Positions 16,061 to 31,185 of a stretch of 45,145 nt of DNA are shown here, in pieces. The stretch is from a candidate division WWE3 bacterium. Its GTDB lineage: Bacteria; Patescibacteriota; WWE3; UBA101185; UBA10185. Within the stretch, counting starts at the first letter, position 1; every line of letters starts with the position of its first letter. A program made the position numbers and the translations under genes. The notes below the pieces were generated by a model, which worked only from the letters and a program-made list of their open reading frames with translations, had not been told where the DNA came from and made no database searches. The stretch lies in assembly GCA_003564915.1 (NCBI GenBank), contig PXDX01000075.1, forward strand, positions 1-45,145. Reading direction: 5' to 3'.

Positions 16061-19000
16061 ATGCCTAAAGATCTTGTTATTAAAAAATCAGCTCTCACTC
16101 CGACCATCTTGGTTTACAACGGAATTTCCTATCTGGGGTTGAATCTGTGCAGAAAACTATTGGAGAAAGGTGCTAGAGTCGTAGTTCTGGATGAAGTCGA
16201 CCTTGATGTTCGTAAAAATGTAGAATCTCTTTTATCCGATCCCAACTTTGCTCTTTTTAATGTTGAAGCGGACAAGGGAATTCCAGAGAAGATTCAGTCA
16301 GTGGATTATATTTTTCAGATAATATTTCCCGATGACCCAGTTGATGTGGGAGCAAAAAATCTTATCTCCGACGCGTTTGCCACTAAGAATTTATTGGATT
16401 TGGCAGTTTCCTCGAAAGCGCGTTTTGCCTTGGTGGAGCCTCTTTTTACCGTAAAGAAGAGAGGTGCCGATCAGGAAAAAGAACAGTATTCATACGCTAA
16501 AAACAGTGAATTCCTTCGTTCCTTGGTTTGGGATTATGTTAATAATAAGGATCTTAACGGACGGATTATTAGGCTTTGTCCTGTATATGGTCCCGGAATG
16601 TCTTTGGATTTTCCTCAAGGATTGTTCCGCTTTATTGATGCTGTTCTGGAGGGAAGGGAACTCAAGATATATGGAGATGGTGTAGAAAAATCCCCCTATG
16701 TTTATGTAGATGATGCGGTAGATGCTCTTATCAAAGCGTTATTTTATAAGCGGACTTCAGGAAGGGTTTTTGATATTCGCAGCGAGGAAGTTCATGCGGA
16801 CTTGGAATTGGCATTTATAATGAAAAGTTTGGCCAATGAGGAGTTGAGTCTTAAGTATGTTGATGAAACGCTTCCCTTTGAAATTACATATTTAACTTCC
16901 GGAGGAGAGCAAGTCCCAAGATGGGTTCCCGAAACGCAATTAAAAGACGGCCTTAAGGTTTCGTTGGAAGGATTTTCTTATAGGGTCAATCCTCATTCTT
17001 TTAAGCCCACCAAGGTCATAAAGGATAAATTAGAAGAGAGAAATAGATCTACTGCAATACACTCTCTTTTGGACGCCAAAAAAGATCTGGATAAGAGCGA
17101 TCTTAAAAAGGAAAGTCCCGCTGAAAAGAGGTTAAATTCCAGAGATTTCAGTAAAAAAATGAAATTCAGATTCAAATTTCCGTCTTTTAGGCTACCTAGA
17201 ATAAATCTCAAAAGGAAAAAGAGTTCGGATCGTAAGGAAAAGGATTCTTTGAAAAATTTACAATTTCCCAAAAGATCTTCGGCCCCTTTCTCCTTTAGAG
17301 GCAATCTTAAATATATTATTTTCGGGATCTTTGTTGCAGCCTTTTTCATGGTTATGGCTCCCGCGGTGACGACTATTTATTCCTCTTACAGAGCGGTAAA
17401 AGCCTTAGAGAAAGTTTCTTTCAATTTGATCCATTTGCGGACGGATGATTCAGAGGAGCATTCTCGTACTGCTTTTATTAACTTCAATCGAGCTCGAGAT
17501 TCATTTAGGCAGTTGAATTGGGCTTTTAAGCTTACCGGACTTACTGAAACCTACGGATCCATCGATAGTTTATTCGATTCGGCATCCTATTTTAGCGGTT
17601 CTCTTTATAGGACATCGCGAGCACTGGATCCTTTCAGCTCTCTTTGGGAGGTGTTAAAACCCACATCTGAAAATGTCTTTTCCGAAGAGGATTTTGCGCT
17701 CAGTACGGGGGAGCTTGTTAACGCAAAGAGTACGATGAATATGGCCTTAGCGCATTATGAAAAAGTGAACGAGGAAAAATTACCTTCCATGCTAGCAACC
17801 CACTCCTCAAATTTTGGAGCCGCAATGAACAGGGCTAACGATTTGCTTGATGATGCCGTCTTGGTTTCTTCTTCTCTTTCTTCAGTTTTGGGTGTAGATA
17901 GAACCAAACAGTATTTATTGCTTTTCCAAAATCCAGCCGAGATTAGGCCTACGGGAGGGTTCATTGGCTCTTATGGAGTCTTGACAGTAAGGGACGGGAA
18001 GATCCAAGAACTTTTTATCGATGATATATATAATCCTGATGGTCAGATAGACTTAAGGAATATCGCAGTAGAGCCGCCCGATCCTATAAGTGAATTTTTG
18101 GGTGAGGAAATCTTGCACATTAGAAACGCTAACTGGTCGCCGGATTTTATTGAAAGTGCGTCTAAAATTGAGAATCTCTTCTTCTTATTGGACAACCGTT
18201 CTTTTGATGGAATTATAGGGATAGATCTTAATCTAATACGTTCTTTATTGGAAGTGACGGGTCCGGTCTATCTTGCCTCCTATAACGAGGAAATTAGTGC
18301 TGATAATTTATATGAACGAACTCAGTATCACAGCGAATTTGACTATCGGGACGGTATAAGTGAAAAAAGGAGCTTTTTGACGGTACTTTCGGCCAAACTC
18401 CTTGAAAGTGTTTTTGCTTTGTCATCAGATAAAACGGGTCATTTTCTGACACAGATACATTCCTCTCTTGAATCCCGAAGTCTGCAGATTTATGTAAAAA
18501 ATCCATCCTTAGCTTCCTTATTAAGAAGCAAGGGTTGGGATGGGTCGCTTGTTTTAGTAGAAGGGGATTTTCTTATGGTAGTTAATTCTAATCTGGGAGG
18601 AACTAAAGCAAATCATTTTGTTTCCAACTCCTACAGCTACTCAGTATCATCCGATACTAGGGATGGTCTGCTTCGTTCTAAGTTAAACTTAAACTATCGA
18701 CACCGCGGCAATAACAATGCTTGGCCCGGCGGCCCTTACACCAACTATGTACGTGTTTATTCCCCTCGGGGTTCTTATCTTGCCGGAGCTTCATTATATA
18801 GAGGGGATCAAACTGAGGATATCATGTCTTCAACACTTGTATACGAGGAAGGATCTTACAATGTTTTTGCGTTCAGTTTTGTCTTAGATCCCTCGGAGGT
18901 TTTGAGAGTAGAGTTATCGTATGATCTTCCGGAAGATCTCTCGCTTTCGAAAGAGGATCAAAGGTATTCTCTTTATTGGCAAAAACAAGCGGGAACCTTG

Positions 19001-19147
19001 GATGATGTTTTCAGGTTTGATTTTAGAGGTCCTTTTGGTACGGAAATAGTTTCTTACAGTCCTTCCGATTTTGCAAAAGAGAAGAATATCGCTGTTCTGG
19101 AAGGTCTGCTGAACATTGATCAGGAGATATTCCTTGAGATGAAGTGA
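16061..19147 (+). CDS. Fusion protein: UXS/RmlB-like extended-SDR domain (degenerate), basic linker, TM helix, DUF4012 domain
   Basis: Residues 1-310 align by eye with UDP-glucuronate decarboxylase (RIIRLCPVYGPGM, KIYGDGVEKSPYVYVDDAVDALIKAL, YSYAK). The TM helix is at aa 417-440. The C-terminal part carries the DUF4012 hallmark LLLFQNPAEIRPTGGFIGSYGVLTV. Confidence 0.65.
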   Translation: MPKDLVIKKSALTPTILVYNGISYLGLNLCRKLLEKGARVVVLDEVDLDVRKNVESLLSDPNFALFNVEADKGIPEKIQSVDYIFQIIFPDDPVDVGAKNLISDAFATKNLLDLAVSSKARFALVEPLFTVKKRGADQEKEQYSYAKNSEFLRSLVWDYVNNKDLNGRIIRLCPVYGPGMSLDFPQGLFRFIDAVLEGRELKIYGDGVEKSPYVYVDDAVDALIKALFYKRTSGRVFDIRSEEVHADLELAFIMKSLANEELSLKYVDETLPFEITYLTSGGEQVPRWVPETQLKDGLKVSLEGFSYRVNPHSFKPTKVIKDKLEERNRSTAIHSLLDAKKDLDKSDLKKESPAEKRLNSRDFSKKMKFRFKFPSFRLPRINLKRKKSSDRKEKDSLKNLQFPKRSSAPFSFRGNLKYIIFGIFVAAFFMVMAPAVTTIYSSYRAVKALEKVSFNLIHLRTDDSEEHSRTAFINFNRARDSFRQLNWAFKLTGLTETYGSIDSLFDSASYFSGSLYRTSRALDPFSSLWEVLKPTSENVFSEEDFALSTGELVNAKSTMNMALAHYEKVNEEKLPSMLATHSSNFGAAMNRANDLLDDAVLVSSSLSSVLGVDRTKQYLLLFQNPAEIRPTGGFIGSYGVLTVRDGKIQELFIDDIYNPDGQIDLRNIAVEPPDPISEFLGEEILHIRNANWSPDFIESASKIENLFFLLDNRSFDGIIGIDLNLIRSLLEVTGPVYLASYNEEISADNLYERTQYHSEFDYRDGISEKRSFLTVLSAKLLESVFALSSDKTGHFLTQIHSSLESRSLQIYVKNPSLASLLRSKGWDGSLVLVEGDFLMVVNSNLGGTKANHFVSNSYSYSVSSDTRDGLLRSKLNLNYRHRGNNNAWPGGPYTNYVRVYSPRGSYLAGASLYRGDQTEDIMSSTLVYEEGSYNVFAFSFVLDPSEVLRVELSYDLPEDLSLSKEDQRYSLYWQKQAGTLDDVFRFDFRGPFGTEIVSYSPSDFAKEKNIAVLEGLLNIDQEIFLEMK

Positions 19148-19159
19148 TATACTGCTTGT

Positions 19160-20101
19160 GTGCATATAGTACAATCCCCGGTTTGGGAGAAATTTAGGCA
19201 ATCTTACGGAGCTGAGCCTGTTAGGGCAGGTGAGGTCCTTTATACCATGCATCCCATACCGCTAATGGAGAAATACTATGCTTATTGCCCAAAAGTAGAT
19301 CCCTTCTCAATAAATTTTGAAGATCTAATCATTTCTCTTAAAGAGAATAATTGCTTTGCAATAAATTTTGATGTTCCTGATATCCTAATTACTTCTTCAA
19401 AGGGAGAAAACGCGATTGAGATATTTCAAAATGAAGGCTGTGTTAAATCTCCCCGGAATAATTTTATGAGGCACAGCTTACTCTTGGATTTAACCCAAAC
19501 GGAAGAGCAGCTTTTTAGCAATCTTCACTCTAAGCACAGATACAACACAAGATACGCACGTAGAAAAGGCGTGATCGTAAGAGAGGAAGAAGGTGAACAT
19601 GGTTTCAACGTTTTTTATGATCTATTAAGGAAAACCTCTGAGCAGCAGGGTTTTTACATTCATCCGAAGGAATACTATTGGAATTTATGGAATATACTAG
19701 GTAGCGAGGGAGTTGCTCGGATTTTGACGGCTTATTATCAGAATATTCCTTTGGTTTCCTGGATGTTTTTTATTTACGGGAATGTCTTATATTATCCTTA
19801 CGGAGGGTCGTCCGGAAAGCACGGAAATCTTCATCCTAGCAATCTCTTGGGCTGGGAAGGCATACTTCTGGGGAAAAAAGAGGAGTGTGAGGTTTTTGAT
19901 ATGTGGGGAGCTTGCCCCGATCTTGAGGATAGGTCGGATCCTCGCTGGGGATATACTAATTTTAAGATCAAATTCGGCGCTGAATATGTGGAATATATCC
20001 CTTCGTACGATTTGGTATTGGAACCCTTTTGGTACAAGATGTTTAATTATGCAAATGAAGCTCGTTGGTTATTTTTGAATTTCAAGAGAGGAGGTTTCTA
20101 G
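19160..20101 (+). CDS. FemAB/FemX-family peptidoglycan aminoacyl-tRNA-dependent transferase, paralog 1
   Basis: LLLDLTQTEEQLFSNLHSKHRYNTRYARRKGV...YYPYGGSS...FDMWG...FKIKFGA parallels Weissella FemX and the FemAB family. GTG start. Confidence 0.7.
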   Translation: MHIVQSPVWEKFRQSYGAEPVRAGEVLYTMHPIPLMEKYYAYCPKVDPFSINFEDLIISLKENNCFAINFDVPDILITSSKGENAIEIFQNEGCVKSPRNNFMRHSLLLDLTQTEEQLFSNLHSKHRYNTRYARRKGVIVREEEGEHGFNVFYDLLRKTSEQQGFYIHPKEYYWNLWNILGSEGVARILTAYYQNIPLVSWMFFIYGNVLYYPYGGSSGKHGNLHPSNLLGWEGILLGKKEECEVFDMWGACPDLEDRSDPRWGYTNFKIKFGAEYVEYIPSYDLVLEPFWYKMFNYANEARWLFLNFKRGGF

Positions 20102-21001
20102 ATGTATCCGCTGGACATAAGGCAATCAGAAGAATGGCTGGAGTATCTGGAATTTTTGGGATGGAAGATTTTGGAAACCTCGGGCGGTATCAAGGGCGTT
20201 ATGATGAAAAGTAGATTTGGAAATGTCATCAAAGTGCAACGTCCCCGCGGTTTAAGTGTTTCAGATCTAAAAGATTTTGATAAGATCGCTGAAGAAAACA
20301 AGATCGCATTTGTGAAAGTAGAACCCGATTTGTCTCAGGATCTAACAATTTTGGATCAAGCTGGGTATATTACGGAAGGTTCTCCTCTTACTCCACCCAC
20401 CACCATCTTTATTGATCTCTCAAAAGACAAAGAATCTTTGTGGGAGGATCTATCCGGGAGCTGTAAGTACTCTATCAGGAGGGCAAAAAGAGAAGGAGCT
20501 GTAACCGATTTTTATACTGACCCGGACGAAAATTTGGTGGAGAAATTTTACGAGATCCACAAAAGTACCGGTAAACAAAAGAGTTTCTATATTCAAAGTA
20601 GGGAAGACATAAAAAAGAAAGCGGAGCTTTTTAAGGATAGAGCAATTATTGGTATGGTCAGAACAGAGAGCGGAGAAGTAACGGGAACCAATCTTTATCT
20701 GGGTTTTGGCAATGGGGTTTGGTATCTTCACGGAGGTACAACCGCAGAAGGCAGGAAAACCAAGAACGGCTATGAATTATATTGGCAATCCATACTTTAC
20801 TTAAAATCTTTAGGATACAAATGGTTTGATCTGGAAGGTGTTGATGATAAGAGATTTCCGGGTTTTACAAAAAATTGGGGAGGTCTAAGCCATTTTAAGG
20901 AGAAATTTGGCGGTCAAAGAGTTGAGTTCCCTGCTCCCAGAGTTAAGATATTTAATAGATTTTTGAAGCTTATTTCCAAATATTCCAATACTCCTATATA
21001 A
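20102..21001 (+). CDS. FemAB/FemX-family transferase, paralog 2
   Basis: IFIDLSKDKESLWEDLSGSCKYSIRRAKREG...WYLHGGTT...FDLEGV...FKEKFGG. The start is immediately adjacent to the stop of paralog 1. Confidence 0.65.
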   Translation: MYPLDIRQSEEWLEYLEFLGWKILETSGGIKGVMMKSRFGNVIKVQRPRGLSVSDLKDFDKIAEENKIAFVKVEPDLSQDLTILDQAGYITEGSPLTPPTTIFIDLSKDKESLWEDLSGSCKYSIRRAKREGAVTDFYTDPDENLVEKFYEIHKSTGKQKSFYIQSREDIKKKAELFKDRAIIGMVRTESGEVTGTNLYLGFGNGVWYLHGGTTAEGRKTKNGYELYWQSILYLKSLGYKWFDLEGVDDKRFPGFTKNWGGLSHFKEKFGGQRVEFPAPRVKIFNRFLKLISKYSNTPI

Positions 21002-25184: not shown

Positions 25185-25214
25185 AGTGGTCTAATTTTAA
25201 CAGATTTGGAGGGA

Positions 25215-25242
25215 TTGACGGCTCTTGATCAATAGCTGTCAA
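25215..25242. promoter_or_regulatory. 28-nt near-perfect palindrome TTGACGGCTCTTGATCAATAGCTGTCAA in the divergent rmuC / GT2 intergenic region
   Basis: Read directly. 24 of 28 positions are self-complementary, with a central TTGATCAA. It lies in a 255-nt AT-rich spacer. Confidence 0.3.
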
Positions 25243-25439
25243 GATCTTAATTACTCTGAAATAGTCCTAATTATATGAGAGTAGAATTGCGTTGTAATTT
25301 CTCAGTTTTGTAACTATCTGTAAAGCTTGATTTTTTTTGGTTTTCCGGGTTTTATTGTGTTTTTCATCCTATATATTTATTAAGTACAAGGAGCAAAATT
25401 AAGAATGAATTCTTAATTACTATAATAGAGAGCTCTAAT

Positions 25440-27764
25440 ATGATAATATGTCCCACAGCAAGAATTGATCATATGATAAAAATAAAATCAAAGAAAAAAA
25501 CCCATAGATTTTTGAGCAAACGTCAGCGAGGTACTGAAGAAGAAACTAAAGCTCTCCCATATATACACGAATCTCCTTCTGTTAGAAATATCGCCTGGAG
25601 CAGATTTTCCATTGTTCTGACTATATTTTTTTGGTCTATGTACTTGACTTTGGTAATAGTTAGACAGCTAATGGAGGGTCCCAACACTTATAATTTTACT
25701 TTGGAGGTATTCTTTTATTTGTTGGTAGTAACATTTTTAACTTTCTCGGCTTTAATGTATCTTGTAGCAAGACACGGGGCTCTACAGAGATTCAGCACAC
25801 ACATACGTACTCCGAAAGCCTTGTTAGATAGTTATTTTTCGTCAAATCAACCCGCGATTACGGTTTTGGTTCCTTCTTATAACGAAGAGCCCGGCGTAGT
25901 TAGGAATACACTTTTATCCGCCGCTTTACAAGAATATCCAAAAAAACGCATAGTGCTTCTAATTGATGACGATCACAAAAAAATTCACCCTAAGGATATG
26001 TCTAAATATGAAGAAACAAAAGACTTAAGCAAAGATATAGCCGAGATTTTAGAAGAACCATCTATTCGTTTTCGTAAAGCTACAGCGCGAGCAAAAAAAA
26101 GAAATTACTCAAAAATTTCTGATATTGATGAGGCCATAGTCGAGGTAATAGATCATTACGAATGGGCTGAAAAATGGTTAAAGAATTTCTCAAAAGGACA
26201 AACCTTAGAAGATCATGTAGACATCTTTTTTATTGAGGAGGTCATTGGCGGACTAGAGAAAGATTTAAGGCTTGTTAAAGAAGCTTTACTAATTTCTCGT
26301 AAAGAGAACGCTAGATTGACAAAAGATGTTATTTTACATTTATACTGTAGACTTTCATGGATTTTTAATGCGGAACTTGAGGTTTTTGAAAGAAAGAAGT
26401 ATATCTCTCTTTCACATGAGCCAAATAAGGCCATGAACCTTAACTCATACATAAGTCTTATGGGAGGTGCTTATAGTCAGGTAGAAACTCCAGTAGGTGT
26501 GGAGCTGGTTCCTACAGAAAAAAAGGATGAAACATCAATTGATATACCGGACAGCGACTATTTACTTACACTTGATGCAGATTCCATATTGCTACGTGAG
26601 TATTGTCTCCGCTTGGTTTATCTTTTGGAACAGCCCGATAATAGTGATGTTGCGGTTGCCCAGACCCCATACTCATCTTTTAGAGGAGCACCTACACGAA
26701 TTGAAAGGCTCGCTGGAGCTACGACGGATGTTCAGCATATATTACATCAGGGTATGACTTATTATAATGCTACTTTTTGGGTGGGCGCTAACGCAATAAT
26801 TAGGAAAAAAGCATTGGAAGATATTGTTGAGAAGGAGTGGATTGGTGGTTATGAAATAAAACGATATATACAGGATCATACTGTCATAGAAGACACTGAG
26901 TCTAGTATTGATATAGCTATGAATGGATGGCGTTTGATTAATTATCCAGAACGCCTAAGTTATAGTGCGACTCCTCCAGATTTTGGCTCTCTTGTAGTGC
27001 AAAGAAGACGTTGGGCTAACGGCGGTCTCATTATCTTACCTAAATTAATGACACATGTACGTGGTCAAAAAAGCAAAGGGGAAAGTATTTCCAAGACGGA
27101 ATTTTTACTTAGATTGAATTATATGGCTTCTATTGCATGGTCTAACATTGGCTTGGTTTTTCTTTTAGCGTACCCCTACGATGGCCGCCTTTTAAGTCCT
27201 CTGGTACTGCTTTCCGCCTTGCCATATTTTATTTCTATGTCTATAGATTTGAAATATTGCCGATACAGGTATACCGACGTTATTCGTATATATGGTTTTA
27301 ATTTGATTTTACTTCCTGTAAATATTGCTGGAGTTTTTAAGTCACTGCAGCAAGCCTTGACGGCAAAGAAAATTCCTTTTGCCCGAACCCCAAAGATTAA
27401 GAATAGAACCGCTGCGGGCTTAATATATGTTTTATCCCCCCTCTTTATAGTAGGATTTTCTGTATTTACATTGATGCGTAACTTGGAAAGTCAAAGCTGG
27501 GGAAATGCTGTGTTTGCTGGATTTAATGCTTTAGCCGCTTTATGGGCTATAGTAGCATATATAGGAATAGGTAATTTACTTGTAGATCTGTGGTTAGGCT
27601 TTAAGGACTTATTTTATGTGGAGGTAAAGAATAAAAAATCTTCAACCGATGCAGAACGATTGCAAAAATTGGATTGGAAAGCAATTCTTTATTATGGCAG
27701 AAATAGCGGGAATTTGCCTTACAAAAGTGTCAATAAACTTACCGTTGGACATGAAAGGAGCTAG
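25440..27764 (+). CDS. Processive family-2 glycosyltransferase (cellulose/chitin-synthase-like beta-glycan synthase), no PilZ domain
   Basis: Motifs present: VLVPSYNEEP...LLIDDD; NKAMNLN (KAGNLN-like); TLDADS (DxD); FWVGANAIIRKKAL (FFCGS-like); VIEDTES (TED); QRRRWANGG (QxxRW). There are 2 N-terminal and about 5-6 C-terminal TM helices. An alternative start is at 25473. Confidence 0.85.
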   Translation: MIICPTARIDHMIKIKSKKKTHRFLSKRQRGTEEETKALPYIHESPSVRNIAWSRFSIVLTIFFWSMYLTLVIVRQLMEGPNTYNFTLEVFFYLLVVTFLTFSALMYLVARHGALQRFSTHIRTPKALLDSYFSSNQPAITVLVPSYNEEPGVVRNTLLSAALQEYPKKRIVLLIDDDHKKIHPKDMSKYEETKDLSKDIAEILEEPSIRFRKATARAKKRNYSKISDIDEAIVEVIDHYEWAEKWLKNFSKGQTLEDHVDIFFIEEVIGGLEKDLRLVKEALLISRKENARLTKDVILHLYCRLSWIFNAELEVFERKKYISLSHEPNKAMNLNSYISLMGGAYSQVETPVGVELVPTEKKDETSIDIPDSDYLLTLDADSILLREYCLRLVYLLEQPDNSDVAVAQTPYSSFRGAPTRIERLAGATTDVQHILHQGMTYYNATFWVGANAIIRKKALEDIVEKEWIGGYEIKRYIQDHTVIEDTESSIDIAMNGWRLINYPERLSYSATPPDFGSLVVQRRRWANGGLIILPKLMTHVRGQKSKGESISKTEFLLRLNYMASIAWSNIGLVFLLAYPYDGRLLSPLVLLSALPYFISMSIDLKYCRYRYTDVIRIYGFNLILLPVNIAGVFKSLQQALTAKKIPFARTPKIKNRTAAGLIYVLSPLFIVGFSVFTLMRNLESQSWGNAVFAGFNALAALWAIVAYIGIGNLLVDLWLGFKDLFYVEVKNKKSSTDAERLQKLDWKAILYYGRNSGNLPYKSVNKLTVGHERS

Positions 27765-27769
27765 CTTTA

Positions 27770-29362
27770 ATGAAAAAAGAGAAAGTGGACACTACATTGA
27801 AAATACCTGAAAGACCTCAAAAAAAGCTTTCCATTTTTAGGATTATATTAGTGTTATTTATTTTAGCCTTGGTAATTTATAGAGTAGATTTAAAAAGACG
27901 CACAAATACTGAGATAGCCTCTATTATCGATTTTGACCCATGGTTTGCCTCCTACGTTGATGTTACAGCAATCCCGTTATACGGCTTTGAGCAACTCGGT
28001 ACGGATAAAGAGTCCAACGTTGTTCTCTCGTTTATAGTTTCTTCTGAGTCAGATGCGTGCTCCCCTACATGGGGGACTTACTATACACTTGATGAGGCGG
28101 CTGTATCTTTGGATATGGATCGCCGAATCGCTCGACTAAGACAGCAAGGAGGGGAGATTGCCGTTTCTTTTGGAGGAGCTAAGAATGATGAAATAGCACT
28201 TGGGTGTACTGATCCAGAGAGACTGTTGGAAGCGTATTTATCTGTTATTTCCAGATATAACATAGACACTATAGATCTCGATCTTGAGGGGGAGGGATTA
28301 AATAACTTAGAAGCAGGGGAAAGACGTGCAGAGGCAATCGCTCAACTGCAGCAGCAAATGAGAACTGAAGGCGGTAACTTAGCTGTCTGGTTAACTTTGC
28401 CGGTTGTACCTCAAGGTTTAACAAAAGAAGGTACAGATGCAATATCTATAATGTTAGACAAAGGCGTAGATATCTCGGGAGTCAATGTGATGACAATGAA
28501 TTACGGTAATAGTAAAGATAAAAATGATTCAATGCTCGAAGCTTCAATAAGCGCCTTAAGAGAGGTTCATAGACAATTAGGAATCTTGTATACGCAAAAG
28601 GATATCAATTTAAGTAGCAGAACTTTGTGGAGAAAGATTGGTGCTACTCCAATGATTGGTCAAAACGATTTTGTAAACGAAGTTTTTACTTTGGAAGATG
28701 CGGAGGGCCTGAATGAATTTGCTCTAGATCAGAGAATTGGAAGAATATCTATGTGGTCGGCAAATAGGGATACTCCTTGCGGTGAAAATTATGTGGATGT
28801 AAAAGTGGTCTCTAATTCGTGCAGCGGAGTTAATGCTCCAAAATATAGTTTTACAAAAATTTTAAGTAATGGTTTTGAGGGAGAGATATCTCAAAATGCC
28901 TTAATACAAACAGAAAATGATCTAGAAACAGTGGATGTAATAATTGATGATCCGGAAAATAGTCCATATCAAATATGGCAAGAAACGGGGGCTTATCCTA
29001 GAGGCGTGAAAGTAGTATGGCGCGGCAATGTTTATGAAGCAAAATGGTGGACAAAAAACGATCTTCCGGATAATCCCGTTTTACAATCATGGGAAACTCC
29101 TTGGCAGTTAATCGGGCCAGTTTTACCAGGGGAGAGTCCAGTTAGACAAGCTACACTTCCTGAGGGTACCTATCCTAAATGGTCCGGTACCGTAGAATAT
29201 GAAGGAGGGGAACTAGTATTATTTGAAGGAATACCTTTTCAAGCAAAGTGGTGGAATCAGGGACAAAGCCCTGCAGCATCTGCCGCTAATATAGATAGCT
29301 CTCCATGGTTGCCTCTGTCACAAAAACAAATAATGGAAATTCTCGCAGAATTAGAGAATTAA
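27770..29362 (+). CDS. Membrane-anchored GH18 chitinase (ChiD-like) with two C-terminal CBM5/12 chitin-binding modules
   Basis: N-terminal TM helix. GH18 motifs: SFGG, DTIDLDLE (DxxDxDxE) and VNVMTMNYG. CBM5/12 repeats: YQIWQETGAYPRGVKVVWRGNVYEAKWWTKNDLP and YPKWSGTVEYEGGELVLFEGIPFQAKWWNQGQSP. Confidence 0.8.
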   Translation: MKKEKVDTTLKIPERPQKKLSIFRIILVLFILALVIYRVDLKRRTNTEIASIIDFDPWFASYVDVTAIPLYGFEQLGTDKESNVVLSFIVSSESDACSPTWGTYYTLDEAAVSLDMDRRIARLRQQGGEIAVSFGGAKNDEIALGCTDPERLLEAYLSVISRYNIDTIDLDLEGEGLNNLEAGERRAEAIAQLQQQMRTEGGNLAVWLTLPVVPQGLTKEGTDAISIMLDKGVDISGVNVMTMNYGNSKDKNDSMLEASISALREVHRQLGILYTQKDINLSSRTLWRKIGATPMIGQNDFVNEVFTLEDAEGLNEFALDQRIGRISMWSANRDTPCGENYVDVKVVSNSCSGVNAPKYSFTKILSNGFEGEISQNALIQTENDLETVDVIIDDPENSPYQIWQETGAYPRGVKVVWRGNVYEAKWWTKNDLPDNPVLQSWETPWQLIGPVLPGESPVRQATLPEGTYPKWSGTVEYEGGELVLFEGIPFQAKWWNQGQSPAASAANIDSSPWLPLSQKQIMEILAELEN

Positions 29363-29490
29363 GTCTATACAAAAACTTCCATTGCAAAAAACCTTAAATT
29401 TTAAGGTACGAACAATTATTTAGTGAAACACGCTTAGCTTATTGTCTGCCTTTGAGCCTTCCAGCAAGCAGGATTTATTAAAAAGTCAGT

Positions 29491-29519
29491 TGGTGAACCC
29501 ACGGGGAATCGAACCCCGG
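29491..29519 (-). repeat. Orphan copy of the 3' end (T-arm, acceptor 3' strand, CCA) of tRNA-Glu; att-like direct repeat
   Basis: TGGTGAACCCACGGGGAATCGAACCCCGG matches 31111-31139 at 28 of 29 positions. No matching tRNA 5' half lies upstream of it on the minus strand. Confidence 0.75.
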
Positions 29520-29651
29520 CTTTTAAAATAGGTATTCCACAGTGTCTGAAAGTCGATCATGATGTTGCTATTCTATCAAATTCTCAATAAGCACAGTTCA
29601 ATTTAAAAAGGGATTGTTGATAAGAAAATGATTAATTAGTAAGATTAATTC

Positions 29652-30734
29652 ATGGTAGAAAGCACTGCTGAACAGCCCCCACCAACAACCCAGACTCCAG
29701 AATCCCAGAAATATGTGGAAAGCGTCGAAGCCACTCACGAAGGACTTTCCAAGCACTGGAGTAATCTTAATAATGAGAACAAAATTGATTTTGCAAAGAC
29801 TCTGTTAAAAGAGAATTTTAAAAATAATATTGATGGACATTGGCCAAACGCAATCAGAATCGCCCCTGGTGAAGCACTTCCGGAAATGGACGAAGATAGA
29901 TTGGGACAACCCGAGATAATTATTACACCGCTTACTACAGAATCGGAGAGAGCGGAAGACAGGGAGGTTCGGATAATTCTAAGAATGAACAACTCTCTTG
30001 AACCGGAAAAGAACAGTCTGCTGGTATTTACCTATGGAGTAGATCGGGAAACTTTGACACCCCAAATGGAAGGAATTACGGAGGGACTTTTGGAGAACGA
30101 ACGTTACAGAGGGGGGCTAATCCAGCTTTCAACGGAACAAGAAATGAACAATTTAAACGAAGAAATTTACCGTTATCACGAAGGTGAACGTGGAAGAAGA
30201 GGACTTCCCGAATCACTATCCGGACAAGCATTTAATAAAGAAGAAGTAGAAGAGAAAAATCTAAAATTAAGGCAACTGCTGATTATTGGGGCTCTAACAA
30301 TGGATCAATATAAGAGTAGGTATGAGCGTTTAAACGGTAAAGCTTTAATTGAATCTTTAAGGGAAAGCGACCGTAAAAGAGAATTTTATGATGAGAGAAT
30401 TGAAGTAAGGAGAGAGTTTTATGAAGCACAGAAAAATCATCAAGAAATTTTAAAAAACACGTTTATTGAAAGATATGAGAATCTGATAACGGAAAGAGAC
30501 GAGCAAATAAAGGAAACTCTGGAAGATACAGAGAACGTGTTATCTAACATGGAAGAAAAAGAAGCAGAGGAAACTGGGGTTGAGCCGGAAATAATCGCAA
30601 GTTACTATGTTGAGCTTGGAAAGTTACTCACACTTCACAAATTGGAGAGGGATCCGGAAAAAGAAAAAGAGCTTCAAGGTCTGATAATGAAACATATTAT
30701 GAATTTTCCCCAAGGAGTAGGTAATGAAACTTAA
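29652..30734 (+). CDS. Hypothetical highly charged (E/K/R-rich, helical) protein
   Basis: 360-aa ORF with no TM helix, no signal peptide and no recognisable motif. Confidence 0.5.
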   Translation: MVESTAEQPPPTTQTPESQKYVESVEATHEGLSKHWSNLNNENKIDFAKTLLKENFKNNIDGHWPNAIRIAPGEALPEMDEDRLGQPEIIITPLTTESERAEDREVRIILRMNNSLEPEKNSLLVFTYGVDRETLTPQMEGITEGLLENERYRGGLIQLSTEQEMNNLNEEIYRYHEGERGRRGLPESLSGQAFNKEEVEEKNLKLRQLLIIGALTMDQYKSRYERLNGKALIESLRESDRKREFYDERIEVRREFYEAQKNHQEILKNTFIERYENLITERDEQIKETLEDTENVLSNMEEKEAEETGVEPEIIASYYVELGKLLTLHKLERDPEKEKELQGLIMKHIMNFPQGVGNET

Positions 30735-31047
30735 AGAAAAATATATAGAAATTATTAGATCAATGGATCTTGAGGAAAGCCTGGAATCTGTGGTTGTAAA
30801 TTTTGTCGAAGAATGTGGGCAAGAGAACAATCAATACTTTGATTTATTCATGATAAATCTACTGCCGGTATTAAGAGAACACAAAAGATTAAAGATTAAG
30901 GCAGAAGGTTACGATAAAGTCTTAGAGATCAACAAAGATTTTGAGAGAAGTATAGAAAATCTTAAGAAAGAGCATAGTATTATGAAAGATCTTGATAAAG
31001 GCGCTCTTAGCGTCAGTTCCGATAATGCCGGAGAAACTGGTTCATAA
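30724..31047 (+). CDS. Hypothetical small helical protein
   Basis: 107-aa ORF overlapping the upstream ORF by 11 nt, which suggests translational coupling. Confidence 0.4.
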   Translation: MKLKEKYIEIIRSMDLEESLESVVVNFVEECGQENNQYFDLFMINLLPVLREHKRLKIKAEGYDKVLEINKDFERSIENLKKEHSIMKDLDKGALSVSSDNAGETGS

Positions 31048-31110
31048 GCGCCTTTTAAATCTCTGGTTTTAAGTAATTGCAGATTTGGCGTCCGCTGTTT
31101 GATGTGATGA

Positions 31111-31185
31111 TGGTGACCCCACGGGGAATCGAACCCCGGTTTCCAGGATGAGAACCTGGTGTCCTGACCGCTAGACGATGGGGCC
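31111..31185 (-). tRNA. tRNA-Glu (anticodon CUC), CCA encoded
   Basis: Folded by hand: GGCCCCA-TC-GTCT-AGCGGTCA-GGAC-A-CCAGG-TTCTCAT-CCTGG-AAAC-CGGGG-TTCGATT-CCCCG-TGGGGTC-A-CCA. It has a 7-bp acceptor stem (one G-U pair), a Glu-typical D-arm and a TTCGATT T-loop. Confidence 0.9.

Follow-up and report, generated by a model that had tools for sequence, protein, structure and literature searches.

A conserved gene pair encoding a cellulose-synthase-lineage glycosyltransferase and a membrane-anchored GH18-CBM5/12 protein: a candidate module for a chitin-like exopolysaccharide in single-membrane bacteria

The DNA analyzed here, referred to as the window, is a 45,145-nt stretch from a candidate division WWE3 bacterium (GenBank assembly GCA_003564915.1, contig PXDX01000075.1, positions 1 to 45,145). 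On its forward strand, to which all coordinates below refer unless a minus sign is given, two open reading frames (ORFs) stand one behind the other: 25440-27764 encodes a 774-aa family 2 glycosyltransferase (GT2) of the processive membrane type, and 27770-29362 encodes a 530-aa partner that combines a membrane anchor, a PF-ChiA-like family 18 glycoside hydrolase (GH18) domain and two carbohydrate-binding modules of family 5/12 (CBM5/12). The GT2 stop and the GH18 start are 5 nt apart, and the sequence reads as a Shine-Dalgarno-type ribosome-binding site for the GH18 gene (AAGGAG, 27753-27758) inside the 3' end of the GT2 gene. An initial annotation, made from the sequence alone, had proposed this pair, here called the cassette, as a candidate make-and-trim module for a chitin-like polymer, in which a processive GT2 works with an anchored GH18-CBM5/12 protein. 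The two ORFs, their coordinates and the gap are present as it described them, and the comparative evidence presented below supports its core reading.

The family relationships of the GT2 were assessed with profile searches. Only GT2 domains exceeded the Pfam thresholds (PF13632, 118 bits). The best NCBIfam match was CelA (TIGR03030), with 94 bits against a cut-off of 699, and the cellulose synthase model NF008558 scored 47 bits against 992; PgaC (TIGR03937), the second-best named glycosyltransferase family, gave 55 bits against 422, and NodC (TIGR04242) gave 27 bits against 550, so that the protein belongs to none of these families. A faint match to PF03142 (Chitin_synth_2), at 21.7 bits and below the cut-off of 27, covered the N-terminal half of the glycosyltransferase A (GT-A) domain. 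The sole solved relative found by sequence or family profile was BcsA. More than 5000 homologues were retrieved, the top 120 of them at 60-67% identity. Taken together, these results demonstrate that the GT2 forms its own large family within the cellulose-synthase lineage and is a member of no named family tested. The initial annotation had named a place inside a glucan-synthase clade as a finding that would speak against its reading; the enzyme lies outside, far below the CelA cut-off and in a family marked by a unique insertion, described below.

The catalytic motifs were D176-D178, K330-A-M-N-L-N335, D379-A-D381, F446-W-V-G-A-N451, I483-E-D-T-E487 and Q521-R-R-R-W525. With the exception of the third aspartate of the first motif, all were invariant or nearly so in 42 close homologues and in 124 representatives of 50%-identity clusters, from which we derived the family signature DD(P), KAMNLN, DAD[S/T], QTPY, [F/Y]WVGAN, IEDTE, QRRRW and FxRTPK. 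The KAxNLN, DAD, FWVGxN, IEDTE and QRRRW motifs of the initial annotation, and its transmembrane bundles on both sides of the catalytic domain, are thus present and conserved; its "DDD" is present in the window, but the third position is proline in the family consensus. The DxD motif (26574-26582) is followed by an invariant serine, S382, and aligns to D246-A-D248-H249 of BcsA. In the same alignment BcsA carries DADH, QTPH and FFCGSA where the family has DADS, QTPY and FWVGAN. Processive GT2 enzymes bind the acceptor through a motif of the QRRRW type; here it is invariant (residues 521-525, 27000-27014), aligns to Q379-x-x-R-W383 of BcsA, and stands at the start of an interface helix that spans residues 515-545 in the AlphaFold2 (AF2) model.

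A gating-loop motif resembling FxVTxK, F647-A-R-T-P-K652 (27378-27395), was located in a loop of low predicted local distance difference test (pLDDT) score after the third interface helix, and it is near-invariant as FxRTPK among the 124 representatives. FxVTxK is the hallmark of cellulose synthases; chitin and hyaluronan synthases carry WGTR/KG instead (PMC9934533). No WGTR/KG motif was found: FxRTPK occupies that place, and NWGN, which the window protein has close by, is not conserved among the representatives. The full set of cellulose-synthase motifs, by contrast, can be read in the protein, with D176 and D379/D381 as the aspartates, E484-D485 as the TED-like element, Q521/R524-W525 as QxxRW and F647-x-R-T-x-K652 as the loop of FxVTxK type.

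The AF2 model (pLDDT 72.6, predicted template-modelling score 0.71) places the GT-A domain between two transmembrane bundles. Behind a basic cytoplasmic N-terminus, hydropathy indicates two transmembrane helices within residues 48-120 (25581-25799; helices H48-79 and H84-120 in the model), and hydropathy and the model together delimit a C-terminal membrane region of four to five helices at residues 552-725 (27093-27614), a putative glycan channel. The top Foldseek matches were poplar CesA8, BcsA and the Chlorella-virus hyaluronan synthase (Cv-HAS), and the matches also included the mannosyltransferase PcManGT. Between DD and KAMNLN the GT-A domain holds a family-specific insertion of five helices, residues 184-309 (126 residues, 25989-26366), modelled at a pLDDT of about 90 in the full protein and 83.7 alone. 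The insertion had no Pfam match, and when modelled alone it found no structural neighbour better than E 0.29; an identity resembling the plant-conserved region of plant CesA, or any other identity, was therefore unsupported by Pfam and structural search. It is kept across the superfamily, in which matches to the window GT2 run as a single stretch, and its conservation (41-50% identity) is below that of the remainder of the protein.

The partner had 2688 homologues. Its score with the Pfam GH18 model passed marginally (PF00704, 30.0 bits against 29.6), but the GH18 assignment is solid because solved chitinases match over about 300 residues: 9buf, a Streptomyces exochitinase, at E 3e-48, and 2dsk, Pyrococcus furiosus ChiA, at E 2e-29. 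These matches define a catalytic domain at residues 58-364 (27941-28861). The DxxDxDxE motif is intact in the window as D166-T-I-D-L-D-L-E173; its catalytic core D169-x-D171-x-E173 (28274-28288) was invariant in 69 of 69 homologues from related loci, and the first aspartate varies. The conserved tyrosine and tryptophan of the -1 subsite, Y245 and W329, were invariant in an alignment of 35 sequences. A single transmembrane anchor at residues 19-38 (27824-27883; hydropathy 2.46) has basic residues on both sides and is kept in 68 of 70 partner homologues, and the topology is N-in, C-out (type II).

Two stretches of the partner matched the Pfam CBM_5_12 model (41.2 bits against 26.2). The first module, at about residues 398-448 (28961-29113), also matched 9x9r and 2d49 in the PDB and carries W403, Y409, W417, Y422, W426 and W427, all invariant in the 35-sequence alignment; the second, at about residues 466-516 (29165-29317; best Pfam stretch 471-511), was matched by 4txg over residues 468-516 and carries W471, Y477, F485 and W494, likewise invariant. 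Source annotations name the protein "chitinase". The membrane-anchored GH18 with intact catalytic motif and two CBM5/12 modules that the initial annotation had described is accordingly borne out by Pfam, PDB matches and hydropathy.

We then assessed the conservation of the pairing by scanning 185,579 species genomes, one genome per species. At least 566 loci with close GT2 relatives were found, and 80 were kept. A GH18-CBM gene lay directly downstream on the same strand in all 79 informative loci, the remaining one ending 19 nt after the GT2; the 79 span Patescibacteria, Microbacteriaceae and Paenibacillus/Paenisporosarcina. When ORFs in the 10-kb flanks were clustered, the GT2 and GH18 clusters were present in 77 and 70 loci and the next cluster in 6, so that no third conserved neighbour gene emerged from these flanks; nor were any chitin uptake or catabolic genes conserved near the cassette in related loci. 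The commonest spacings were -4 nt (22 loci) and -1 nt (7 loci), and the pairwise distances of the two proteins were correlated (r=0.82). The initial annotation had named two findings as damaging to its reading, an adjacency confined to this genome and a GH18 transcribed independently. Neither was observed: the adjacency recurs across phyla and on Lactococcus and Arthrobacter plasmids, and the overlapping start and stop codons, together with single-chain fusions in actinobacteria, speak against independent transcription.

The only rearranged cassette seen was on the Arthrobacter plasmid pNicSoilB8 (L083, 6128-14503), where the GH18-CBM partner lies upstream of the GT2 and is divergently transcribed; a second GH18 gene (38% identical) follows downstream, and a GGDEF-domain gene is nearby.

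An exhaustive search of 1.84 billion cluster representatives yielded 493 clusters at E<=1e-30, many of which were 35-49% identical over the whole GT2 architecture, insertion included. In many independent clusters, many of them actinobacterial, GT2, membrane helix, GH18 and two CBM5/12 modules form a single chain; examples include a 1299-aa protein of the cultured genus Microbispora (Microbispora siamensis) and clusters with up to 43 member sequences. In these fusions the anchor of the partner has become an internal membrane helix linking the GT2 C-terminus to the GH18 domain, as would be expected if the former is cytoplasmic and the latter extracytoplasmic. The arrangement of a membrane-bound processive synthase with a cognate polymer-cleaving or -modifying enzyme in one operon is that of synthase-dependent exopolysaccharide systems, and we are highly confident that GT2 and GH18 form an obligately coupled synthase-hydrolase machine.

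Further relatives extend this architecture. A C-terminal EAL domain is carried by the nearest outgroup (46-49% identity to the window GT2), which comes from Acidimicrobiales and other actinobacteria (P0246, P0413, P0430, P0453 and relatives; L086, 6001-10639), and chains of about 1500 aa join GT2, EAL, membrane helix, GH18 and CBM. In the unfused EAL-carrying form, as in the plain actinobacterial form, the partner is encoded immediately downstream. A regular-expression search found the DDFG[TAS]G motif in none of 13 EAL domains, which suggests that the fused EAL is a degenerate, receptor-type domain for cyclic di-GMP (c-di-GMP) that may replace the PilZ domain of BcsA; the window GT2 itself has no c-di-GMP receptor domain by Pfam. 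At 38-44% identity, superfamily members were found fused to CE4 N-deacetylases resembling PgaB, IcaB, NodB and PgdA (six representatives: P0264, P0275, P0281, P0295, P0339, P0346) and to LCP (LytR-CpsA-Psr) glycopolymer transferases (two: P0296, P0327); single representatives carried an IcaC-type acyltransferase, Acyl_transf_3 (P0351), and an amidase-like DMFA2_C domain (P0271). By their domain content, these extensions are the ones used in synthase-dependent exopolysaccharide systems, above all in systems for polymers of N-acetylglucosamine (GlcNAc), and the superfamily appears to be a modular set of single-chain exopolysaccharide machines in Gram-positive-type bacteria.

What polymer the cassette makes can be approached through the chemistry of the partner. 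GH18 catalysis is substrate-assisted and requires a 2-acetamido group at the -1 subsite. Because the hydrolase uses the N-acetyl group of its substrate and its DxDxE motif is invariant, the product is likely to contain beta-linked GlcNAc, and this chemistry, taken with the fused domains of the relatives, points above all to a polymer with GlcNAc in it. True chitinases are the partner's closest solved relatives, and the CBM5/12 aromatic residues are kept; in the clade of the window, a chitinase-type GH18 with paired CBM5/12 modules would favour a beta-1,4, chitin-like linkage. We therefore consider that the cassette is probably a minimal, self-contained module for a synthase-dependent exopolysaccharide in single-membrane bacteria, with a GlcNAc-containing, most likely chitin-like product. 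A more far-reaching version is tentative and falls somewhat short of probable: this family of the cellulose-synthase lineage would make true chitin (beta-1,4-GlcNAc) as a convergent second origin, through an obligate two-protein or fused synthase-chitinase nanomachine. The machine would be widespread in the candidate phyla radiation (CPR, Patescibacteria), its chitin being a major polymer on the surface of these episymbionts; it would have passed between Saccharibacteria-like lineages, actinobacteria and bacilli, with copies on industrial Lactococcus plasmids.

Several observations weigh against a chitin-like product. The closest named and solved relatives of the GT2 make cellulose, not chitin; its gating loop is of the cellulose-synthase type rather than the WGTR type of chitin and hyaluronan synthases; and no chitin synthase appeared among the top 50 Foldseek matches of its model. 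CBM5 modules can bind cellulose too. The deacetylases of the relatives resemble PgaB/IcaB and would fit a beta-1,6 product like poly-N-acetylglucosamine (PNAG) in those clades. Biochemical or genetic data on any family member were not found in the literature.

The alternative that best survives these points keeps the two-protein machine as described and changes its polymer, to a beta-1,6 PNAG-like chain or a mixed GlcNAc glycan, for example an alternating one, in which the GH18 cuts after GlcNAc. We regard it as unlikely but worth serious attention. PgaC/IcaA is the second-best named family of the GT2 at 55 bits, superfamily relatives are fused to the PgaB/IcaB-like CE4 and IcaC-type acyltransferase domains, and the layout of two plus four helices resembles hyaluronan synthase, itself a Foldseek match. 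Streptomyces MatB, built from GT2, membrane helix and CE4, makes PNAG (PMC5972031). Set against this, the closest solved relatives of the partner are beta-1,4 chitinases, its paired CBM5/12 modules are typical of crystalline-chitin binders, and the related loci of the GH18-coupled clade encode no deacetylase. GH18 enzymes, moreover, are not known to cleave beta-1,6 PNAG, the PNAG hydrolases being GH20 and GH153.

A cellulose-like glucan as the product is less probable still. Under this alternative the CBM5/12 modules would bind the glucan and the GH18 would act elsewhere, either on peptidoglycan, opening it locally for passage of the chain, or on external chitin; cellulose binding is known for some CBM5 modules, and lysozyme activity for some class-III-like GH18 enzymes. 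Searches by sequence, profile and fold all place cellulose synthases first among the GT2 matches, and the protein has a gating loop of FxVTxK type. The GT2, however, reaches only 94 bits against the CelA cut-off of 699, and its substrate-proximal motifs depart from those of BcsA at the three places given above (DADS/DADH, QTPY/QTPH, FWVGAN/FFCGSA). Related GT2s are fused to N-deacetylases, which would have no substrate in a glucan, and action of the GH18 on what the GT2 makes is the simplest explanation of their strict co-inheritance and fusion.

Two further possibilities are very remote. The first, that a nutrient-scavenging chitinase merely sits beside an unrelated envelope glycosyltransferase, could draw on the fact that GH18 with CBM5/12 is the standard architecture of secreted bacterial chitinases, a name the partner bears in annotations, but it conflicts with the adjacency in 79 of 79 loci across phyla without conserved chitin-uptake or catabolic genes, with the overlapping start and stop codons and co-evolution of the two genes, and it is effectively refuted by the repeated natural fusions in which the anchor has turned into an internal helix. 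The second, a non-processive GT2 that adds single sugar units to lipids or proteins, has as precedent the many GT2 enzymes with membrane helices that are non-processive, PcManGT among the Foldseek matches; it is contradicted by QRRRW on an interface helix, the gating loop, the six-helix channel-type membrane domain, the full-length fold match to BcsA, CesA and HAS, and a partner whose polysaccharide-binding modules and endo- or exo-glycanase domain imply a polymer.

With a chitin-like exopolysaccharide as the preferred product, the following mechanism can be proposed. The GT2 would reside in the cytoplasmic membrane through two N-terminal and four to five C-terminal helices, and its cytoplasmic GT-A domain (DD, KAMNLN, DAD, IED, QRRRW) would add sugars from a uridine diphosphate (UDP)-sugar to the growing chain while the FxRTPK gating loop closes over the active site. 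The chain would leave through the channel of the GT2 itself, as in BcsA and CesA. The GH18 gene would be translationally coupled and its product anchored in type II orientation, with the GH18 domain and both CBM5/12 modules on the outer face, where it may bind the emerging chain and then cut, trim or release it, and may also retain the polymer at the cell surface. The biological role could be that of a surface coat, an adhesion factor or a matrix.

The closest cassette homologue of the window is in a WWE3 genome. Patescibacterial hosts comprise WWE3, Moranbacteria, Parcubacteria, Saccharibacteria, Collierbacteria, Woesebacteria, Dojkabacteria and Kerfeldbacteria; cultured Microbacteriaceae hosts are Leifsonia, Cryobacterium, Curtobacterium, Salinibacterium and Lacisediminihabitans; and Bacillota hosts in the species scan are Paenibacillus and Paenisporosarcina. 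All are single-membrane bacteria, apart from doubtfully labelled metagenome-assembled genomes (MAGs). Cassettes from MAGs titled "uncultured Bdellovibrionales", "Gammaproteobacteria", "Micavibrio" and "Pseudomonadales" clustered with CPR sequences (L003, L005, L008, L011, L013, L014, L029, L031, L042, L062), and the taxonomic labels of those records are probably unreliable. The cassette is also present on 13 mobilizable dairy plasmids of Lactococcus lactis/cremoris, beside prtP/prtM and flanked by IS6/ISS1 elements. In this plasmid form (L081, L082 and L084: NZ_CP094476.1, NZ_AP024213.1, NZ_CP091108.1) the GT2 is 52% and the partner 48% identical; the plasmid partner is annotated "hypothetical protein" or "chitinase", and no phenotype of the plasmid cassette was found in the literature. 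A further copy is on the Arthrobacter plasmid mentioned above. Carriage by phages was not supported, as there was no match in 50,697 phage records.

An unrooted neighbour-joining tree of concatenated GT2 and partner proteins was built with 100 bootstrap replicates. Microbacteriaceae cassettes were monophyletic in 100 of 100 replicates, as were those of Bacillota, and the Microbacteriaceae (L030-L080) grouped with Saccharibacteria to the exclusion of the Moranbacteria/Parcubacteria/WWE3/window group, again in 100 of 100. Transfer between phyla is therefore clear, and the unrooted tree gives no direction to it. Saccharibacteria are episymbionts of actinobacteria.

The G+C content (GC) of the cassette tracks that of the host from 0.33 to 0.69, with a median cassette-flank difference of +0.016, indicating that residence is old in most lineages. 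Composition accordingly gave no support to recent horizontal transfer: from host to host the cassette has the same GC as its flanks, and in the window only the GC of third codon positions (GC3) is low. There the GC values of 0.372 (GT2) and 0.399 (GH18) compare with an ORF mean of 0.398 (sd 0.020), and codon-usage divergence is no outlier among the window ORFs, whereas the GC3 values of 0.308 and 0.309 are the two lowest of 32 ORFs (mean 0.376, z ~ -2.3). This could reflect a faint residue of foreign composition or an expression-linked bias. The initial annotation had called the pair more AT-rich than its flanking genes, which holds for GC3 but not clearly for overall GC, and had considered it accessory and horizontally acquired; this is true of the family, as plasmid carriage and inter-phylum phylogeny attest, although the cues within the window itself are weak.

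The cassette stands behind a 255-nt divergent spacer (25185-25439) between rmuC on the minus strand and the GT2 gene. The AT-richness noted in the initial annotation is real, the spacer having a GC of 0.298 against 0.375 for non-ORF sequence in the window. A sigma-70-like site, TTAAGA-16-TATAAT (25399-25426), is a match to the consensus and a candidate promoter only, since such sites were no more numerous in the region than shuffled sequence would give. No Rfam match to a riboswitch or other RNA control element lay upstream of the cassette in the window, and none was found upstream in six loci from Paenibacillus, Paenisporosarcina, Lactococcus, Orlajensenia (Microbacteriaceae) and Cryobacterium. 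Pfam gave no match to PilZ, BcsB or BcsC in the GT2 and none to PilZ or BcsB in neighbouring genes, in agreement with the earlier statement that such partners are lacking.

The wider window is of housekeeping character, with GroEL, SecA, two aminoacyl-tRNA synthetases, an AddA/UvrD-like helicase-nuclease, FemAB and PepF. A few kb upstream of the cassette and on the same strand, an envelope-related cluster (16061-21001) holds a 1028-aa ORF in which an NAD-dependent epimerase/dehydratase domain is fused to DUF4012, followed by two FemAB-family genes. A role in anti-phage defence was considered and dropped, PADLOC giving no match.

Beside the cassette, 130 nt downstream of the GH18 stop, a sequence on the minus strand (29490-29520) is a 28/29-identical copy, CCA included, of the 3' end of tRNA-Glu(CTC) at 31111-31185 (minus strand), in the same orientation as the intact gene. 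The two copies bound a 1.6-kb segment (29521-31110) with two ORFs, one Glu/Lys-rich (360 aa) and one of 107 aa; neither has a significant Pfam match, and an integrase is absent. The segment resembles what an element inserted into the tRNA gene would leave behind. The tRNA-linked scar of the initial annotation is thus real, but the att-like repeat brackets this neighbouring segment and not the cassette, and an interpretation of the cassette as a tRNA-linked island was rejected.

The possible significance of these findings lies first in the standing of chitin itself. Chitin is regarded as a eukaryotic polymer, the bacterial record being limited to NodC oligosaccharides and a few putative chitin synthase (CHS) genes of eukaryotic origin. 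A conserved synthase-chitinase unit in hundreds of bacterial species would change this view, and the present data suggest, without proof, that many bacteria make a chitin-like surface polymer. The unit is present across much of the CPR, a group with poorly understood envelopes and modes of attachment; if the reading is true, it supplies a candidate surface or adhesion polymer for these bacteria and a second, independent enzymatic route to chitin-like material. Its two-gene or one-gene form is attractive for structural work on the coupling of synthesis and cleavage, and the minimal cassette for biotechnological production of chitin or chito-oligosaccharides. As the cassette is carried by cultured Leifsonia, Cryobacterium, Paenibacillus and Microbispora and by Lactococcus lactis plasmids, the question is directly testable. 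No description of the GT2-GH18 pair was found in the literature searched, whose coverage was incomplete, so that an earlier description is possible.

Among known systems, the BcsA-BcsZ pair of Bcs operons offers a close parallel, with a processive membrane GT2 bearing D,D,D and QxxRW, a gating loop of FxVTxK type and a cognate hydrolase alongside. Unlike BcsA, the cassette GT2 comes without PilZ, BcsB and BcsC, has two plus four to five membrane helices instead of four plus four, and contains the helical insertion of about 125 aa; unlike BcsZ, a soluble GH8 glucanase, the partner is a membrane-anchored GH18 with CBM5/12 modules that requires GlcNAc. The partner itself resembles the PF-ChiA-like GH18 chitinases 9buf and 2dsk in the alignment of about 300 residues and in DxDxE, and departs from them in being tethered to the membrane by an N-terminal anchor and in being always encoded with, or fused to, a synthase.

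In the Streptomyces system CslA-GlxA-CslZ, which PMC5972031 also mentions, a cellulose-synthase-like GT2 of a single-membrane actinobacterium likewise works with a cognate hydrolase on a surface beta-glycan. CslA needs the radical copper oxidase GlxA, and the hydrolase of that system is not a GH18; the cassette is set apart from it here by description. With chitin synthases, NodC and HAS the cassette GT2 shares processivity-type architecture with QRRRW, and presumably the UDP-GlcNAc donor and the product class, but its PF03142 and NodC scores are below cut-off and it carries FxRTPK rather than WGTR/KG. A chitin product would make the GT2 a case of convergence, a chitin synthase that arose within the cellulose-synthase lineage.

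The proteobacterial "bacterial chitin synthases" are eukaryote-derived, horizontally acquired division-1 CHS whose operons hold an epimerase and DUF1501 in Gram-negative plant pathogens (Goncalves et al. 2016, PMC5122149). They resemble the cassette as candidate bacterial makers of chitin or chito-oligosaccharides, but they belong to the PF03142 lineage and have no GH18, and identity with the present family was rejected. The Clostridium perfringens "chitin synthase" CP4_0468, a 466-aa GT2 in another context (PMC2879425), was likewise rejected as the same system. PNAG systems (PgaC/IcaA with PgaB/IcaB) and MatB share with the cassette the general plan of a synthase-dependent GlcNAc-polymer system with an extracytoplasmic modifying domain; the MatB layout of GT2, membrane helix and CE4 (PMC5972031) resembles that of the CE4-fused GT2 relatives. 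The cassette, however, has no PgaD/IcaD, and GH18 with CBM5/12 takes the place of the deacetylase. Taken together, and by analogy, the cassette would function like Bcs-, Pga- and Mat-type systems with a cognate glycanase, yet it falls outside the BcsA, PgaC and CHS/NodC/HAS families.

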